Assembly (NCBI GenBank): GCA_017134395.1
Contig: CP070993.1
Coordinates: 398,199-462,198 of the forward strand
Length of the DNA stretch: 64,000 nucleotides
Origin: Candidatus Kaiserbacteria bacterium
GTDB taxonomy: Bacteria; Patescibacteriota; Minisyncoccia; Phycocordibacterales; UBA2100
Direction of reading: 5' to 3'
In this document: positions 3,946-59,269 of the stretch, piece by piece
How the letters are laid out: each line of letters starts with the position of its first letter
How positions within the stretch are numbered: position 1 is the stretch's first letter
Translations under genes and position numbers: made by a program
Notes under the pieces: model-generated
The model's database searches: none
Told to the model about the DNA's origin: nothing
What the model saw: the letters and a program-made list of their open reading frames with translations, nothing else

Positions 3946-4053
3946 ATGTTGGCGCCGAGCTACTCTCGCCTTACGACTACCATCGCCTCAGAAGAGCTTA
4001 ACTTCTGTGTTCGGAATGAGAACAGGTGTACCCTCTTCGATGAAGCACCAACA
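3946..4053 (-). rRNA. rrf: 5S ribosomal RNA
   Basis: The reverse complement reads TGTTGGTGCTTCATCGAAGAGGGTACACCTGTTCTCATTCCGAACACAGAAGTTAAGCTCTTCTGAGGCGATGGTAGTCGTAAGGCGAGAGTAGCTCGGCGCCAACA, which matches the bacterial 5S consensus (CCGAACACGGAAGTTAAGC...GATGGTAGT). Helix I closes the 5' and 3' ends. Confidence 0.85.
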
Positions 4054-4374: not shown

Positions 4375-7715
<3,341 letters not shown>

Positions 7716-47504: not shown

Positions 47505-47530
47505 AGAATATTTTTACCAAAATTAAAACG

Positions 47531-47560
47531 CCCTTTCGGGCGGTTATATGACTATAATAC
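47531..47560 (-). terminator. Hairpin terminator
   Basis: On the minus strand: ccgccc-gaaa-gggcg followed by ttttaatttt. Confidence 0.45.
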
Positions 47561-47711: not shown

Positions 47712-48305
47712 TTAAATCGAACACGTACCTTCTCCCCCAAGACACAGTGAACGACTTTTAGTTGAACCATTGGGTTGTGAGCGCTTGGTTAACAACAAAA
47801 TAGTATCTCTCATCTCCTGTAGCGACATCACTCCTCGCTTATGGAATAACACAGTCCCTTCTTCATCTACAAACACCGTTTCTGGCATGCCAAATCCTTC
47901 GATGAAGCGATAAAACGAATCTTGTGGGTCAAATAAGATATGTAGCTTATCGCTTAGCGTTAGTGTCTTCAAGAAGTCTTGCGCATCCGCTGAAGATTCT
48001 CCACGATTAATAGCAATCACGGGCACCTCAGGAAACTCATCGGCAAGCAGAGCAAGATCTGGCAATTCTTCTACACAAAACGGGCACCAGCTCGCCCATG
48101 CGTTGATAACAACAACAGGAGCTTTGTACTGCTCGAGTGTTTGGCAATTTCCATTTTCATCTGCATACGTCAGTGAATATAGTGAGCCCTCATCGTATGT
48201 ACACGCTACCCCTTCTTGAGGCTGCAAAAGAAAGGAAATACTTCCAATAATTACAATTGTAACGAGGAGCAAAGACACTGTTTGTTTTGTAACAAATCTT
48301 TTCAT
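47712..48305 (-). CDS. TlpA/ResA-like membrane-anchored thiol-disulfide oxidoreductase (thioredoxin fold)
   Basis: The WASWCPFC CxxC motif and an N-terminal TM helix; the start was trimmed to MKRFVTKQ... Confidence 0.8.
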   Translation of the reverse strand: MKRFVTKQTVSLLLVTIVIIGSISFLLQPQEGVACTYDEGSLYSLTYADENGNCQTLEQYKAPVVVINAWASWCPFCVEELPDLALLADEFPEVPVIAINRGESSADAQDFLKTLTLSDKLHILFDPQDSFYRFIEGFGMPETVFVDEEGTVLFHKRGVMSLQEMRDTILLLTKRSQPNGSTKSRSLCLGGEGTCSI

Positions 48306-48307
48306 AT

Positions 48308-49369
48308 CTAGAGCATTAATTCTGTTTCTGGATGAACAGCAAGCCAAGAGAACCAAAAACCTCCAATATACGAGAACGGTGTGTCACCAATGTTCATTCG
48401 CACCTCACCAATTTCGCTTTTAGTAATAGTTATCGTCTCACCTGCAAACGTGTCGGTAGTAACACCCACTGGGAGACTGTCGGCAACATATGCTTTAAAG
48501 TTGCCCTCATGCTCTACACCAAGTACATATTCCTTAGGATGCAGCCGTGCATCGCTAAACGTTGCACCAAATGATACATCTCGATTTGTGTAGTAATCAC
48601 CATACGGATCTCGTCCGTAGATACGAATTGCTCCAGTGTCTTTTGAGAGTACTTGAGTTTCTGGGTATTGCTTCTTCCAATCGCCAAATTTCACTGTGTC
48701 TGAAGGTACAATAGTGAGCCGTTTTCCAGTATGAACTCCCGTCACCGCACGTCCAAGTACTTGTGACCACAGTGACTCGTTGTCTTCATTATTGGTTCGG
48801 TTGTACATCAGTAAATTCGACTTCCATAGTTTTCCTGAAACACCAAACTCTACTACCTCGTCGTCAACGCGACGTTCATAAGTAACGCCAGTACGACACA
48901 GTGGACAGTACGTGACTGCAACAGACAATTCTTCTACAGACCCATTCACCGGCAATACATCGTTTACAATCTCATGCCACACGAGTATTTGGAACGGGTA
49001 AAAACGGGCAACATCTCCATGCACAATGCCCATACCAAAATCATCGTCGTCTAAAAATGTTGCCTTCTCTACTGAAATGAATTTCGGCTCATCGATTGAA
49101 GGGATTCCGTCTTTCCCAGGGCCACCTGAAAGGATTTCATCCTCGGGTATCCCTTTGAAACCATCATCGGCTGTAATTTTCGGAGTTGTCTGTGTTTGTG
49201 TGTTTGTGGTTTCAGAAACTTCTGAAGGAGTGGTATCTGTTATTGCGGAGTCTGTTTTTTCAACATCTGAAACGACTTCGGATTCTTGGTTATTTGCCAT
49301 ATAGAAAAAAATGCTAGCGATTAACACGATGATAACGATGCCTATACTCACTATTTTAAGATTATTCAT
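48308..49369 (-). CDS. DUF3179-family membrane-anchored protein
   Basis: GGPGKDGIPSIDEPKF and YCPLCRTG motifs are typical of DUF3179; the start was trimmed to MNNLKIV... Confidence 0.65.
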   Translation of the reverse strand: MNNLKIVSIGIVIIVLIASIFFYMANNQESEVVSDVEKTDSAITDTTPSEVSETTNTQTQTTPKITADDGFKGIPEDEILSGGPGKDGIPSIDEPKFISVEKATFLDDDDFGMGIVHGDVARFYPFQILVWHEIVNDVLPVNGSVEELSVAVTYCPLCRTGVTYERRVDDEVVEFGVSGKLWKSNLLMYNRTNNEDNESLWSQVLGRAVTGVHTGKRLTIVPSDTVKFGDWKKQYPETQVLSKDTGAIRIYGRDPYGDYYTNRDVSFGATFSDARLHPKEYVLGVEHEGNFKAYVADSLPVGVTTDTFAGETITITKSEIGEVRMNIGDTPFSYIGGFWFSWLAVHPETELML

Positions 49370-49374
49370 ATTGT

Positions 49375-49689
49375 TTAAAAAAATATTTCTAAAATGTGCA
49401 CTATGTTGTGTGCCACTCGTGTATCTGCAATTTTGTAACACACAGTTTGCCCTTCTCGTTCACTGATAAGCACTCCTTTGTCTTCCAGATCGTTTAATTG
49501 ATGGCTCACTGCAGAATGCGATACGCTCATACCTTCAGCTATTTCTCCTACACACATTCCATCTTTGTTAACAACAAGAAGTTTTAGAATTTTGCACCGC
49601 GTCGGGTCAGCCAGAATCTTAAAGACAGAAGCAGTTTCTTGTGCCCAATTCATTTTCTTCTCAGATTTCGTATATGAATGTATGCTCAT
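49375..49689 (-). CDS. ArsR/SmtB-family transcriptional regulator
   Basis: FKILADPTRCKILKLLVVNKDGMCVGEIAEGMSVSHSAVSHQLNDLEDKGVL is the canonical ArsR helix-turn-helix. Confidence 0.85.
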   Translation of the reverse strand: MSIHSYTKSEKKMNWAQETASVFKILADPTRCKILKLLVVNKDGMCVGEIAEGMSVSHSAVSHQLNDLEDKGVLISEREGQTVCYKIADTRVAHNIVHILEIFF

Positions 49690-49779
49690 ATATTCATATC
49701 ATACCCTACCCTCCGAATCATGCAATGCTAATCGCATACAAAAACAAGGGCCCAGAAAAGATTTCTGGGCCCTAATGTC

Positions 49780-50289
49780 TTACACGTCGAGTGTGACGGC
49801 TTTTCTATCCAGATACAGCGAAAGGAATGTCTCCTCAGCAGGATCATCGTAAGAAAGTCCACACAGTTCTGAAACTCGATCTTCATCAAGAAACCATGCT
49901 GCGGCAGCAATAATCGACAACGCGTACAAACGCGCCCTCGAAGACATCTCTCCGCACACCTTCTCCAAGTCTGAAATTGCATCTGAAGAAAGCACCTTTT
50001 CACAGAGGTCTCTATTCAGATCTTCAAAGGGACAACGTAAAATGAAAGCTCGAAAAACCTTATCATTACACTCATGTCTCCGAGCATTTTTTTCCACAAC
50101 CCGTCCGATCTCAACCCACGCTTTTCTTGCCTCTTCTCCTTTTTCTTCGGAGGTTAAAAACATAAGAGTATGCATCGCCAAGCCACGTTGTGATACCGAA
50201 TACCCAGAATCAATAGCGAAGCTCAAGACAGTGCAAAGATGCATATTTCTCAGCTTCGAGGGATATCTATAGTCTGCAATTGAACGCAT
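49780..50289 (-). CDS. Hypothetical all-alpha protein
   Basis: The start was trimmed to MRSIADY... so that it no longer overlaps the upstream gene; flanked by perfect hairpin terminators at 49748-49772 and 50354-50385. Confidence 0.4.
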   Translation of the reverse strand: MRSIADYRYPSKLRNMHLCTVLSFAIDSGYSVSQRGLAMHTLMFLTSEEKGEEARKAWVEIGRVVEKNARRHECNDKVFRAFILRCPFEDLNRDLCEKVLSSDAISDLEKVCGEMSSRARLYALSIIAAAAWFLDEDRVSELCGLSYDDPAEETFLSLYLDRKAVTLDV

Positions 50290-50405
50290 CTTCTTTCTCC
50301 GCTTTTGGGAACTTGCTACAGTTGAGTATACATATACATACTTGGAGCACAACAATAAACGCCTCACAAATGTGAGGCGTTTATTGTACATGTGAATTCC
50401 AGGGC

Positions 50406-50798
50406 TTAGACACCGAGTCCGAATCCAACGTATACGAGGTATAGTCCTGCGGCAACTGCTACAACACCAGCAAGAACTGCAAGGTTGCGATTCCGTCCAA
50501 ATGCTTTTGCTTGGCTTATCATCATGTTTGGTACAAAGAAAATAGCGATTCCCTTTATTACCATAGCCCAACCAACTAGTGTAGGAATAACACGCCATGA
50601 TGCTTCCCAGACATTGTGGTTAAGCACAATGAGTAGACCGAGGATGAATACCATCGCTCCTGTTACGAACATGAGCGCTTTGTTGTTGCTCAAGTCGTCA
50701 ACGATGTTCACGATAAACTTCTTTCTTGTCAGAATGACCACACCCTCCAATAGAAGGTAGAGACCGATTAACTGAGCAAGTAGTAGTGAAATGTCCAT
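50406..50798 (-). CDS. Hypothetical small membrane protein (about 4 TM helices)
   Basis: 130-aa hydrophobic ORF. Confidence 0.5.
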   Translation of the reverse strand: MDISLLLAQLIGLYLLLEGVVILTRKKFIVNIVDDLSNNKALMFVTGAMVFILGLLIVLNHNVWEASWRVIPTLVGWAMVIKGIAIFFVPNMMISQAKAFGRNRNLAVLAGVVAVAAGLYLVYVGFGLGV

Positions 50799-50888
50799 AG
50801 TATTAATACTTACCTAATAATGTACTTTAAGTGTAGCACGGGCTGTTTTTACGCAACCTTCAGCTGTGGGGAACTTTTGGTAATAGTT

Positions 50889-51353
50889 TTAGTTGAATTC
50901 TACCTTTGCGTAGTTAAATAATACGCTAAACGGTACGCACCAGTGTAATATGAATGGATAGTCTTCTAGATTCACCCCATCAGGTAATTCATAGTTTATG
51001 CTCCCTTCTGTCCCTTTAATTGGCCCGAGATCAATAAATTCTTTTCCATCTTTATCTTTTGCTAAGTAGAGATGTAGATTGGGCCCGTTGATTGTTTTAA
51101 AATTCTCAAACCGTAAAAAACGTTTTCCGTCGCCTTCAAAAACAGAGACCGTGCCTTGGGCAGGATGGCCAAACGTTTCGTGTATTTCAAAAGGTCCATC
51201 CATAGCATATACCACCCCACCGTCTTCTGGTTCTTGCATAAAGGATTCAGGCAATGAGTCATTTACCTCGACGACATTAAAGAGAGGTGAAATGAAATAA
51301 TAAGACGCTATAGCGAAGATTGTTACGATAATGAGACTGATGATTTTTTTCAT
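50889..51353 (-). CDS. DM13-domain protein with an N-terminal membrane anchor
   Basis: GHPAQGTVSVFEGDGKRFLRFENFKTINGPNLHLYLAKD...INYELP matches the DM13 domain pattern. Confidence 0.65.
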   Translation of the reverse strand: MKKIISLIIVTIFAIASYYFISPLFNVVEVNDSLPESFMQEPEDGGVVYAMDGPFEIHETFGHPAQGTVSVFEGDGKRFLRFENFKTINGPNLHLYLAKDKDGKEFIDLGPIKGTEGSINYELPDGVNLEDYPFILHWCVPFSVLFNYAKVEFN

Positions 51354-51400
51354 GATTGTAATGATAACAAAAAACGTTGCAAAATATGCAACTTTTTTTG

Positions 51401-51545
51401 CTAGGGCGAACGATGGGACTCGGCGCCAGTACTAAGCTCGTTCCTCGCTAAGTACTCGCTGCCCCGCCGCTTTCGACAAGCCTGACTTCGCTTGGCTACG
51501 TCATCTTGTATACCGAAAGCTTTTTTCGAGTCCCATCGCTCGCTT
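51401..51545 (-). repeat. Duplicated tRNA-His 3' end (19 nt) with an inverted partial copy that forms a 17-bp stem enclosing nested hairpins; possible att-site remnant or structured RNA
   Basis: 51404-51422 gggcgaacgatgggactcg is identical to the tRNA-His T-loop-to-3'-end segment at 51591-51609. 51527-51543 cgagtcccatcgctcgc is its imperfect reverse complement. Confidence 0.5.
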
Positions 51546-51588
51546 CCAAAATGCACAAAACCCAAGGCGATGCCTTGGGTTTATATTT

Positions 51589-51665
51589 TGGGGCGAACGA
51601 TGGGACTCGAACCCACGACAACCTGAACCACAATCAGGGGCTCTACCAACTGAGCTACGTCCGCC
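51589..51665 (-). tRNA. tRNA-His (anticodon GTG) with encoded G-1 and 3' CCA
   Basis: Reverse complement: G-GCGGACG-TA-GCTCAGTTGGTAGAGC-C-CCTGA-TTGTGGT-TCAGG-TTGTC-GTGGGTTCGAGTCCCAT-CGTTCGC-C-CCA. A cloverleaf with anticodon GUG; the extra 5' G pairs with C73. A terminator follows at 51547-51588. Confidence 0.9.
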
Positions 51666-52358: not shown

Positions 52359-52442
52359 GCTCAGGTGGCGGAATTGGTAGACGCGCTACCTTGAGGGGGT
52401 AGTGCCTGTATGGGCGTGCTGGTTCAACTCCAGTCCTGAGCA
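52359..52442 (+). tRNA. tRNA-Leu (anticodon GAG), long variable arm, no encoded CCA
   Basis: GCTCAGG...GTGGCGGAATTGGTAGACGCG-CTACC-TTGAGGG-GGTAG-...CCTGAGC-A. The acceptor and anticodon stems pair perfectly. A terminator follows at 52449-52485. Confidence 0.85.
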
Positions 52443-52479
52443 CAAAATAAACAAAAGAGCGCCAATGGCGCTCTTTTGT

Positions 52480-53121
52480 TTATCCTTCTTTCTTTTCTTC
52501 TGGTTGTTCTTCCTCTTTTGTTTCTTCTTCAGCTTTTGGAGCTTCTTCTGTTACCTCTTCTTCTGTTTCTAGAGCTTCTTCTTCTGTTTTAGTTTCCTCT
52601 GTTGCGTCTTCTGTAGATTCTACCTCTTCAGCTGGGGCTTCTGCTGCTGCCTTTGCTTCTTCCTCTTCTTGTCGTGCAGCTTCCTCTTCTTGTCGCTTAG
52701 TTTCTTCGGCTTCTGCTACCTTACGTTCAGCTTCTAATTCGAGCGAGCCTTTTGTAGAAACACCTGACATAGTAGTTCGTCGGAATACACGCTTCAGTTC
52801 TCGAGCAACCTTGTCTCGAATAAAGTAAAGCTTTGCTCGGCGAACCTTTGATCGCTTCACGATTTCAATCTTGTCGATTGATGGCATGTACAGTGGAAAA
52901 ATCTTTTCAACACCTACACCGTTTGTCACTTTTCGTACGGTAAATGTACCTCCAGCTTCGTTTCCGTGCTTTCGTGCAAGTACTAAGCCTTCAAATGCCT
53001 GTAAACGTGTCTTGCCTTTTTCTTCAATTTTTAACCATACGCGAACAGTGTCCCCGGCTTTAATACCGAGCTCTGCGCGTTCTTTCATGTCCACTGGACT
53101 GGTAACTACTTTGTTCTTCAT
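52480..53121 (-). CDS. rplS: 50S ribosomal protein L19 with an approximately 100-aa Glu/Ala/Lys-rich C-terminal extension
   Basis: [78 protein letters not shown] is L19. It is followed by an acidic tail. Confidence 0.9.
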
Positions 53122-57740: not shown

Positions 57741-57777
57741 TATAGCATGATTATACGGCTATGCTTGAAGCTGCTTT

Positions 57778-57856
57778 ACTTAAACACCTCAGCCAATTGA
57801 GCGATTAATTTTTCTTAATACGTAGTGTTTAGAAATAATGGAAGTACTCTCGTGGT
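57778..57856. repeat. 79-bp direct repeat, left copy (upstream of the Na+/Ca2+ exchanger gene)
   Basis: acttaaacacctcagccaattgagcgattaatttttcttaatacgtagtgtttagaaataatggaagtactctcgtggt. It matches 58844-58922 at 77 of 79 positions. Confidence 0.75.
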
Positions 57857-57871: not shown

Positions 57872-58795
57872 CTACATTCTTTCGAATCCTAAGTGCTCCA
57901 CCCATTTCCGTAAAATTTCTTTTCCTTCGTCAGTATAGTATGAACGCATGCGAAACTGAGCATCAAAATCAATTTGATCTTCAATCGGAACATGTTTCGT
58001 AGGAATCTTCTTAAATGCTTCTACAAAATCTTCTCCGTAAGAATTTCTAAAAAATTCCTCGAATTCTGGGTTGTTTAAAAATTCGCCTTCAAACATACCG
58101 CGTACCATGCCGCGCCATGCAGTCCCTTCTTGAACACCTGCATAGGTATCAATTCGAGATGCAATATCAGCGACAAAAGCAACCCACCTTACATAAGTCC
58201 TTCGCAAAGCATTTGTTACACTTTCTGCCATTTCTTTTGAAATACCAGAACGCTTTGCATATTCCATAGAAACCTGTTGTGCAAGGCGTTCTGTCACACC
58301 TTCATTAAAAGCAGCTCCGATTCCTTCACCTTGATCGTACCCAACGCGTGCTTTTAATCCCTCCGTTTCTATGTATGAAGTAGCATGTATTAACTCATGC
58401 ACGAATGTATGTATAAGTGCTGCCTTACTACTCTCACGCAAATGCGTACTTGAAAAAGAAATTTTGTTCATATCAGGGTGATAAGCTCCTATTGCAGACC
58501 CCTCTGGGGTAATAATCACCTGCTTGTCTAAAGATATCTTATTTAAAACAGATGTATCTACACCTGATTTTCTTGCAACTTCTTCAAGAATTCCCCACAG
58601 TAATGCATAGTCCAATTCTTCTTTAAATTTCTCAAGGCTTTCTTTAGCATCAGGATTCTCTTTTATTTCTTGCTTATTCTGTTTCGTATATATCCTTTCG
58701 ATAACTTTTGCTCTTGTCTTTTCTGGCCATGCTGAATTATCATGCCTACCTCCTCTTTTTTTGAGCTCTTTTTTAAAGGAAAATTTTTCGAACAT
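57872..58795 (-). CDS. Hypothetical HExxH-motif protein (putative zinc metallopeptidase-like)
   Basis: Contains LIHTFVHELIHATSYIE; no signal peptide; flanked on both sides by the 79-bp direct repeats. Confidence 0.5.
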   Translation of the reverse strand: MFEKFSFKKELKKRGGRHDNSAWPEKTRAKVIERIYTKQNKQEIKENPDAKESLEKFKEELDYALLWGILEEVARKSGVDTSVLNKISLDKQVIITPEGSAIGAYHPDMNKISFSSTHLRESSKAALIHTFVHELIHATSYIETEGLKARVGYDQGEGIGAAFNEGVTERLAQQVSMEYAKRSGISKEMAESVTNALRRTYVRWVAFVADIASRIDTYAGVQEGTAWRGMVRGMFEGEFLNNPEFEEFFRNSYGEDFVEAFKKIPTKHVPIEDQIDFDAQFRMRSYYTDEGKEILRKWVEHLGFERM

Positions 58796-58843
58796 AGTGT
58801 GGTTAGTATAACAAACTAGAACGCTTATACTGTGCGTCGTTTG

Positions 58844-58922
58844 ACTTAAACGCCTCAGCCAATTGAGCGATTAATTTTTCTTAATACGTAGTGTTTAGAA
58901 ATAATGGAAGTACTCTTGTGGT
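58844..58922. repeat. 79-bp direct repeat, right copy (upstream of the HExxH gene)
   Basis: See 57778-57856; the two mismatches are A/G and C/T. Confidence 0.75.
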
Positions 58923-59147
58923 AACCCCGGCTCGCCCATTCTCCTGGTTAGTCGAACATGACTCCGCCCGACACAACATCAAAAAAAGAAAGCAGTTTTT
59001 GTTTGTGACCACTGATCACTAAACTCATACTTCGTCCTTCGGACTTGTATTTACTAAGTGTCTTTGGTCTGGGCTCAACTGTCTTCGCTTCGCTCATACA
59101 TGTTTCCGCCTGACACCGATATACGCAAGCAAAGCAGTTTGCTTGCT

Positions 59148-59190
59148 AAACGAAAACACTTTGCGCTAGTAGCGCAAAGTGTTTTCGTTT
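59148..59190. terminator. 43-nt perfect palindrome (19-bp stem) downstream of tRNA-Arg; bidirectional terminator-like
   Basis: aaacgaaaacactttgcgc-tagta-gcgcaaagtgttttcgttt. Confidence 0.6.
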
Positions 59191-59197
59191 ACATCGG

Positions 59198-59269
59198 TGT
59201 CCCCACTAGGAGTCGAACCCAGATCGAGAGGATAGAAGCCTCTTGTTTTATCCATTAAACTATGGGGAC
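59198..59269 (-). tRNA. tRNA-Arg (anticodon TCT)
   Basis: Reverse complement: GTCCCCA-TA-GTTTAATGGATAAAAC-A-AGAGG-CTTCTAT-CCTCT-CGAT-CTGGGTTCGACTCCTAG-TGGGGAC-A. All stems pair. Confidence 0.85.

Follow-up and report, generated by a model that had tools for sequence, protein, structure and literature searches.

The stretch of Candidatus Kaiserbacteria DNA analysed here (64,000 nucleotides of contig CP070993.1; hereafter the window) carries, directly behind its tRNA-His(GTG) gene, an insert of about 187 bp that is one member of a family of non-coding, strongly structured elements. These are roughly 140–300 nt long and occupy the 3' flanks of tRNA genes in Patescibacteria (Paceibacteria/Kaiserbacteria-like). 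Of the family membership and of the specificity for tRNA flanks we are highly confident. We class the insert as a small non-autonomous structured insertion element, whose unusual trait is that its arms are templated by, or specific to, the adjacent tRNA. The family appears to be undescribed: full-text searches of the literature and a survey of MITEs (miniature inverted-repeat transposable elements) turned up nothing matching the element, BLAST of its core against phage and plasmid collections gave no match, and pattern scans of IMG/VR for core motifs returned only chance matches within coding regions with no tRNA nearby. An earlier note on this DNA had taken the duplicated tRNA end at this locus for a possible integration scar beside a block of acquired genes. 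The finding is more interesting than such a scar because it reveals a family.

At the window locus, the minus strand holds exactly two copies of the 19-mer CGAGTCCCATCGTTCGCCC, spaced 187 bp apart. One copy sits within the tRNA-His gene, where it spans the T-loop from C56 through the discriminator to C74, and the other lies downstream (see table). The repeat described in the earlier note is thus exact; its start in the T-loop had been placed correctly, whereas its end runs one base beyond the discriminator given there. Dinucleotide shuffles of the window contained no match to the 19-mer in any shuffle, and the window holds no third copy even with three mismatches allowed. The 168 bp between the two copies contain no credible gene. 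Between them lies an inverted copy with three mismatches, which can pair with either the tRNA end or the downstream direct copy. Its pairing with the downstream copy extends over 17 nt at 94% (arms 51406–51422 and 51527–51543), and that with the tRNA end and trailer over 26 nt at 85% (arms 51525–51550 and 51586–51611). The longer pairing wraps round a terminator hairpin, which is the centre of the long palindrome made by the tRNA end and the inverted copy. In the shorter pairing, the direct copy is the 3' strand of a closing stem, the sole non-Watson–Crick position of which reads as a G.U pair on the tRNA-sense strand. The minus strand of 51395–51590 is predicted to fold, at -91.2 kcal/mol (z = -8.5 against shuffled sequence), into a long closing stem around two hairpins, in agreement with the 17-bp stem enclosing hairpins that the earlier note had drawn from a partial inverted copy. 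The tRNA itself is called by ARAGORN on the minus strand and scores 64.4 bits with the Rfam tRNA model.

The same arrangement recurs in relatives, whose syntenic contigs (L numbers in what follows) were obtained through PduO homologues. There was no exact-sequence record for the DM13 and PduO proteins of the window. The closest genome record, with a PduO-type adenosyltransferase 94% identical to that of the window, is Patescibacteria group bacterium UBA2100 (L001), and more distant PduO homologues are labelled Candidatus Kaiserbacteria by their sources. In L023, where PduO is only 44% identical, the tRNA-His differs in sequence but has the same layout behind it, made from its own tRNA: a terminator, an inverted copy AGTGTCTATCGGGATTCGAA, a core of about 90 nt, a direct copy CGAATCCCGATAGACACCC and then a second, degraded unit. 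Within the same 10 kb, the tRNA-Leu, tRNA-Arg and tRNA-Val genes each have this layout behind them with arms taken from their own tRNA, which makes five units behind four out of four tRNAs. The core that these units share reads AGACGGAA, a hairpin (hp1) with the loop UAGCAA, UGAGUCGGGGUCG, a second hairpin (hp2) with the loop UGAGCGACGGCGAA, and UGAC. Further units were found behind tRNA-His (L052, L066 twice, L067, L068 and L069), tRNA-Val (L001, L059, L066 and L067), tRNA-Leu (L052 and L067), tRNA-Arg (L066) and tRNA-Glu (L059). Whichever of these five tRNA species is concerned, the arms match the adjacent one.

In the orientation of the tRNA, the order of parts in a unit is the tRNA 3' end (A), a terminator (B), the inverted copy (C), the core (D), the direct copy starting at C56 (A') and another terminator. 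The window unit has the order B-C-core-A' on the strand of its tRNA, arms that match this tRNA and a core homologous to the others. The same 18–19 nt as in its A' stand at the equivalent position in L001, L066 and L068, and a native tRNA-His of the window type is also present in L052, L054, L057, L059 and L066–L069. When 14 cores were used as nhmmer queries, 21 of 21 matches lay downstream of a tRNA gene on the same strand, at a distance of 65–122 nt (262 nt for a second tandem unit), and no match fell away from tRNA genes in the window and the relatives' loci examined. A covariance model built from six units, the window unit among them, recovered the same set and had no match in L002, L008, L017, L018, L024, L054 and L057. 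The window unit, being a training sequence, scored 123.6 bits; the independent units L067-Val, L052, L059-Val and L023-His scored 88.3, 76.8, 42.4 and 36.8 bits.

The cores have diverged widely while retaining their helices. Helix P1 is kept through full replacement of its sequence, being GCTTTCG/CGAAAGC in the window, GTCGCTG/CAGCGAC in L068 and GCTTCCG/CGGGAGC in L067-Val, and hp2 is likewise kept among the window-type units (L068-His, L067-Val and L066-His unit 2). These replacements were read by hand and are independent of any alignment. In an alignment of 18 rows, 88.5% of the cells of the model were standard pairs, 16 of the 24 pairs showed changes on both sides, and the closing stem (helix 1) was 90.5% paired across copies, although these statistics lean towards structure because the alignment was fitted to the model and its rows are related. 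None of 500 shuffles reached the observed covariation values, and sliding the partner strand lowered the pairing to 30–41%. In 18 of 18 units the tRNA-sense strand folds more stably than its complement, whether RNA or DNA energy parameters are used. The heptamer GCGNAGC, the very stable GNA-triloop mini-hairpin known from single-stranded DNA, is found 11 times in the cores of these 18 units on the sense strand, mostly at hairpin tips, and not once on the antisense strand. From the covariation, the sense-strand folding and the sense-only motif we conclude that the element has been selected to fold as a single strand of the polarity of the tRNA.

The units come and go as repeats do and not as a fixed gene would. 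The tRNA-His site is occupied in the window, L052, L066, L067, L068 and L069 and empty in L054, L057, L059 and L076, where only a terminator and the next gene follow the tRNA; the comparison of relatives that the earlier note had called for thus did yield the empty site. Occupancy is also patchy at tRNA-Val, tRNA-Arg and tRNA-Leu, and the load ranges from none at nine tRNAs (L054 and L057) to seven at seven (L023 and L067). At the tRNA-His locus alone there are at least four core subtypes across lineages. Behind tRNA-His of L066 two units with different cores stand in tandem, the newer one between the tRNA and the older, window-type unit. Units occur tandem, truncated and mosaic, and older ones are often reduced to their right end, that is, the 3' strand of hp2 and CGAnTCC. 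Such right-end fragments are found in tandem behind tRNA-Glu of L059 and behind tRNA-His and tRNA-Leu of L067.

A remnant in L001 comprises the end of B, a decayed C, the core and an exact 18-nt A'. In this genome the native tRNA-His has been replaced by one of a different sequence type, which lies beside a possibly disrupted HNH-like open reading frame (ORF) with a weak match to Pfam HNH_3, directly before the tRNA (6140–6684, the same in L021). The exact 18-nt direct arm of the old element was kept downstream, and about half of the positions of the inverted arm have changed. The other type of tRNA-His is also present in L077 (11777–11849). Two independently assembled contigs, L069 (10723–10763) and L071, end within the element at ...GGTATACAAGA, as would be expected if this motif were present in several genomic copies and broke short-read assemblies.

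We consider it probable, at roughly 0.55, that the element is a selfish, non-autonomous mobile element that inserts itself into a tRNA gene at, or close to, the T-loop and 3' end. The insert lies at the tRNA 3' end and is flanked by a duplication that starts at C56, and the inverted copy ends no more than two bases from the same position of the T-loop. The element would supply or duplicate the 3' end and so leave the tRNA intact; according to this proposal, the 19-nt direct repeat is there because the tRNA 3' end was supplied or duplicated on entry. On the tRNA-sense strand, C, D and A' would fold into a hairpin whose stem imitates the double-stranded end of the tRNA gene. A single-stranded circle A*-B-C-D, with C paired to A*, could then exchange one strand with the tRNA gene in the T-loop, in the manner of the CTX phage at dif. 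A* would pass to the tRNA, the former end A0 would come to lie behind loop D, and the layout A-B-C-D-A' would result, with the enzyme supplied in trans. In an alternative, double-stranded version, a T-loop-specific integrase would act in trans. Repeated entry beside the same tRNA would produce arrays, in which the palindromic parts of older units are lost. We rank the exchange of a folded single strand, or its double-stranded integrase version, first among the readings, and our confidence in this mode of insertion is moderate to low. A single-stranded DNA intermediate of the element is a conjecture. More tentatively still, the units may represent a new class of mobile element without an enzyme of its own, in which a folded single strand imitates the end of a tRNA gene and the arms are re-templated from the tRNA entered. 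If this were true, a single core lineage could colonise any tRNA gene, and bacteria of the Candidate Phyla Radiation (CPR) would possess a process comparable to CTX-phage/dif or integron attC recombination but aimed at tRNA genes, or an equivalent that works through RNA.

Several observations weigh against a mobile element of this kind. Pfam scans and the gene tables of the loci examined contain no recombinase, transposase or reverse transcriptase near the copies, and the same loci show neither an autonomous version with genes between A and C nor an excised form or circle junction. The proposal does not explain how one core family gains arms specific to five different tRNAs; a 3' end borne by the element would wreck a non-cognate tRNA. 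The two arms of a unit also do not always agree: the inverted arm of L059-Val matches at 20 of 20 positions and its direct arm is unrelated, and in L066-His unit 1 the direct arm matches at 19 of 19 and the inverted arm in its T-arm part only. In two or three cases (window/L057, L066/L069 and L067-Leu/L069-Leu) the first bases of the trailer resemble those of relatives with an empty site. This hint is no less compatible with entry behind the tRNA than with entry in the T-loop, and A-B may be host DNA. The fitted alignment with its related rows tells in the same direction. Finally, sense-strand folding and a terminator for each unit are equally expected of an RNA gene.

Such a gene is the foremost rival to the mobile element, although we regard it as unlikely. 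The units would encode a stable structured RNA with a functional core, whose closing stem imitates the stacked acceptor and T arms of a tRNA; the transcript would be cut out by RNase P, 3' trimming and CCA addition, and copies would spread by duplication or recombination beside tRNAs. The preference for the tRNA-sense strand in all 18 units, the G.U pairs on that strand, the covarying helices with conserved loop and junction motifs, and the terminator-like hairpin that each unit has after it all suit this explanation, as does a hairpin within C of L023 unit 2 and L067-His that falls exactly at the boundary of acceptor and T stem, as in a cloverleaf. However, Rfam offered no match at any threshold: at the gathering threshold only tRNAs, rRNAs and a group I intron were found in the window and five relatives, and at a permissive one only sub-threshold microRNA-like hairpin matches at the window locus and in L023. 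A strong terminator separates the tRNA from the unit, and no promoter was identified. The unit is dispensable, as sites are vacant in close relatives and two genomes lack it at nine tRNAs, and many copies are truncated, decayed or tandem right-end fragments. In the window unit position -1 reads as A, so that there is neither a G-1:C73 pair nor tRNA-His identity. Moreover, the identity of arm and tRNA calls for a process at the DNA level in any case, because processing enzymes need no stem identical to the adjacent tRNA. One such process, a by-product of replication or repair without a dedicated enzyme, seems to us improbable. A nascent strand would fold back at the terminator hairpin of the tRNA and copy the trailer and tRNA end in reverse, giving C; it would then jump, at the near-universal T-arm motif TTCGAnTCC, to an element behind another tRNA gene, copy its core and jump back, giving A'. 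Template switching of this sort explains why C reaches into the trailer and the palindrome is centred on the terminator, why both arm boundaries lie in the T-loop, and why local arms enclose shared, mosaic cores (hp1 of the L023 Leu and Arg units is identical at 46 of 47 positions, while hp2 differs); B and B' are clearly homologous at L023-Leu. It also predicts that B' is a copy of B at birth, whereas the youngest-looking units, those of the window and L023-His unit 1, have perfect arms and unrelated B and B'. Nor should a passive hitch-hiker keep its helices through compensatory changes or retain sense-specific motifs.

To the remaining two explanations we give very little credence. A decayed duplicate of tRNA-His would account for a 3' end retained at a spacing of about 180 bp and for the short match GACGTAGC to the 5' part of the tRNA that can be read within the core. 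Yet D and anticodon arms are missing, neither ARAGORN nor the Rfam tRNA model recognises a tRNA there, the interior is maintained as helices, and the same core stands behind five tRNA species with arms that change with the tRNA. The other explanation is that of the earlier note, in which the 19-mers are the attL/attR remnant of a large island brought by an integrase and the genes at 47712–51353 are its cargo. Islands of this kind are classically recognised by a directly repeated tRNA 3' end whose start lies in the T-loop, and gene content just downstream of tRNA-His does vary among relatives: the space from the tRNA-His terminator to the upstream region of the gene for a 130-aa membrane protein holds nothing, one or two unrelated genes, or DM13. 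However, the repeats enclose only the 168 bp without genes, and both lie on the tRNA side of the gene block, which is outside them. On the minus strand the order is rplS, tRNA-Leu, PduO, tRNA-His, the element, DM13, the 130-aa membrane protein, a hypothetical gene, ArsR, DUF3179, thioredoxin-like, secE, nusG and rplK, and the DM13, 130-aa membrane protein, ArsR, DUF3179 and thioredoxin-like genes likewise lie between PduO/tRNA-His and secE-nusG in L057, L066, L067, L068 and L077. In L057 the block is present while the tRNA-His site is empty and has no repeat. Upstream of the 130-aa gene the sequence is conserved in all relatives, and it adjoins the DM13 gene without an att remnant. The GC content of 47.7–51.4 kb (0.41–0.44) is like that of the flanks, and the anomaly that the earlier note had suggested looking for was not there. 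In line with that note's remark on the missing integrase, Pfam scans found no integrase or other recombinase among 33 ORFs of the window (of the 61 ORFs of at least 140 aa, three were scanned at 1–30 kb and 54.7–63 kb, and 30–46 kb lay outside the scan) or among those of L001, and a third copy of the 19-mer is missing from the window. Terminator-like hairpins or perfect palindromes do stand at 47529–47542, 49747–49773, 50352–50387 and 51376–51392, but these are four sites and not, as had been claimed, brackets round every gene. Hence, the adjacent genes are unrelated to the element. What survives of the scar is that the duplicated tRNA end marks an insertion at a tRNA gene; the gene-carrying island does not survive. 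A 5' leader or riboswitch of the DM13 gene was rejected, as the element elsewhere precedes unrelated genes or convergent tRNAs and ends in a terminator. Hammerhead and other small ribozymes, retrons, diversity-generating retroelements, IS200/IS605 and IS91 insertion sequences (the latter with a GTTC target), casposons and the homing spacers of CRISPR-associated transposons were set aside because, on a reading of the sequence, their junctions and gene context do not fit.

The mobile element that we favour shares features with several known systems and coincides with none. With the attL/attR sites of tyrosine integrases that use the T-loop sublocation (P4-like phages and islands) it has in common the direct repeat of a tRNA 3' end, the intact tRNA, the empty sites and the tandem arrays. 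In contrast to these, the window insert measures about 187 bp and has no integrase or cargo, and the family possesses an inverted att-core copy as well as a covarying hairpin core at five tRNA species. A parallel in layout is offered by attP(+) of the CTX phage at dif, an integrative mobile element exploiting Xer (IMEX), and by integron attC. In these established systems, copies of the target in inverted and direct orientation, some 100 nt from each other, fold to mimic the duplex target, the element encodes no recombinase, folding is strand-specific and arrays form at the target. The order predicted for CTX attP (target, body, inverted arm, loop and displaced target copy) is the order seen in the family. 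The target, however, is a tRNA gene and not dif or attI, no enzyme is known, and the body consists only of a terminator hairpin. The window arms, as we read them, contain no Xer or IntI recognition site, only the T-arm and acceptor of the tRNA, and GTTCGAG does not fit GTTRRRY.

The fallback of the earlier note, a structured RNA or MITE, was right in spirit and came near the truth. Like MITEs and REPINs (repetitive extragenic palindromic doublets forming hairpins), the elements are short, non-coding, intergenic and multi-copy, have terminal inverted arms and occur in lineage-specific bursts. Two loci in the window, five units in 10 kb of L023 and insertion polymorphism among relatives are as expected of a MITE. 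However, no short target-site duplication flanks both arms (of the two direct-repeat copies, one serves as an arm and the other is 45 nt beyond the opposite arm), the arms copy the adjacent tRNA end and not a fixed family sequence, specificity for tRNA flanks is strict and orientation is fixed, and neither a parent transposase nor a RAYT (REP-associated tyrosine transposase) gene was present in the loci examined. The RNA half of that fallback lacks an Rfam counterpart. Transfer-messenger RNA (tmRNA), YrlA, the MALAT1-associated small cytoplasmic RNA (mascRNA) and the msr-msd of retrons also have a long closing stem formed from both ends round several hairpins, with acceptor and T-arm sequence as the 3' strand. 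Unlike these, the element keeps no T-loop, ARAGORN finds no tmRNA and Rfam nothing of the kind, no reverse transcriptase or Ro protein gene is adjacent, and the copies are dispensable and decaying. In Escherichia coli, the distal tyrT repeats of 178 bp each terminate in the final 19 nt of tRNA-Tyr. They resemble the window in having a 19-nt tRNA 3' end at a spacing of about 180 bp behind the gene, but they are plain tandem duplications without an inverted copy or a core shared with other tRNA loci.

The genomes of CPR bacteria/Patescibacteria are small and thought to be poor in repeats; several lineages nevertheless bear the element at most or all of their sampled tRNAs, and sister lineages have none. 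In the carrier lineages it was unannotated. It breaks metagenome assemblies at tRNA genes, as in L069 and L071, and can be misread as a prophage scar. Should the mobilising enzyme be identified, it could be a recombinase that can be programmed through a hairpin mimicking its target.

Table. Parts of the element behind tRNA-His and of a second, decayed locus behind tRNA-Arg in the window
Feature	Position	Strand	Basis
tRNA-His(GTG), G-1 and CCA encoded; target or anchor of the element	51589..51664	-	ARAGORN, Rfam tRNA
Direct-repeat copy 1 (A), tRNA C56–C74	51591..51609	-	exact 19-mer
Terminator hairpin (B), 11-bp stem, T-runs on both strands	51558..51582	.	terminator scan of both strands
Inverted copy (C) of tRNA 3' end and first trailer bases	51525..51550 (core match 51527–51545)	-	inverted-repeat search
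Structured core (D), 104 nt	51423..51526	-	fold, homologous cores, covariance model
Core D: A-rich linker		-	fold
Core D: helix P1	51514–51520 with 51469–51475	-	fold
Core D: hairpin hp1, motif GGTATACAAG...CTTGTC	51476–51513	-	fold
Core D: junction GGCGGGGCAGC	51458–51468	-	fold
Core D: hairpin hp2	51428–51457	-	fold
Core D: GGCGC	51423–51427	-	fold
Direct-repeat copy 2 (A'), displaced or extra tRNA-His 3' end	51404..51422	-	exact 19-mer
Small hairpin and T-run (B') closing the unit, just before the DM13 gene promoter region	51369..51392	-	terminator scan
Second, decayed locus behind tRNA-Arg(TCT) (59196–59269)	58903..59190	-	sequence reading, weak nhmmer match, shared modules
Second locus: terminator	59148–59190	-	
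Second locus: conserved hairpin AGCAAGCAAACTGCTTTGCTTGCG	59124–59147	-	
Second locus: short inverted copy of tRNA-Arg end and trailer	59112–59122	-	
Second locus: core	59005–59111	-	
Second locus: further fragment	58903–58972	-	

The second locus of the window is assigned to the family because it shares modules with other units, and not on account of its nhmmer match: its core was itself a query, and its match among the 21 is a self-match. The conserved hairpin at this locus also occurs behind tRNA-Arg of L066, behind tRNA-Leu of L052 and within unit 2 of L023 tRNA-His. Nearby, an 83-nt direct repeat, 96% identical between its copies (57775–57856 and 58840–58922), brackets an ORF of 307 aa with a weak SprT-like match (57872–58795, minus strand). 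This ORF is located between tRNA-Arg and a Na/Ca-exchanger gene, which comes directly after tRNA-Arg in L054, L057 and L069. The repeat starts with ACCACAAGAGTACTTCCATT, a module found also within the long cores of L052-His and L059-Val.

Some further features of the window and its relatives were recorded. The 23S rRNA gene of the window (4375–7708, minus strand) contains a group I intron at 4830–5110 (Rfam, 85 bits), and the 5S rRNA gene lies at 3947–4052. The tRNA-Leu(GAG) gene beside PduO (52359–52483 in the window, 3196–3278 in L001) has one orientation in the window, L052, L054 and L066 and the opposite one in L001, L057, L059, L067, L069 and L076. A perfect 18-nt palindrome (52447–52483) comes after this gene in the window, and in L001 an extra 2.2 kb at this tRNA carries metallo-beta-lactamase-fold, rhodanese and ArsR genes. 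Between rplS and tRNA-Leu, L057 (9098–9781) and L077 (949–1632) have a LAGLIDADG-type ORF with a faint Pfam match, which is possibly another homing-endonuclease gene beside a tRNA gene.

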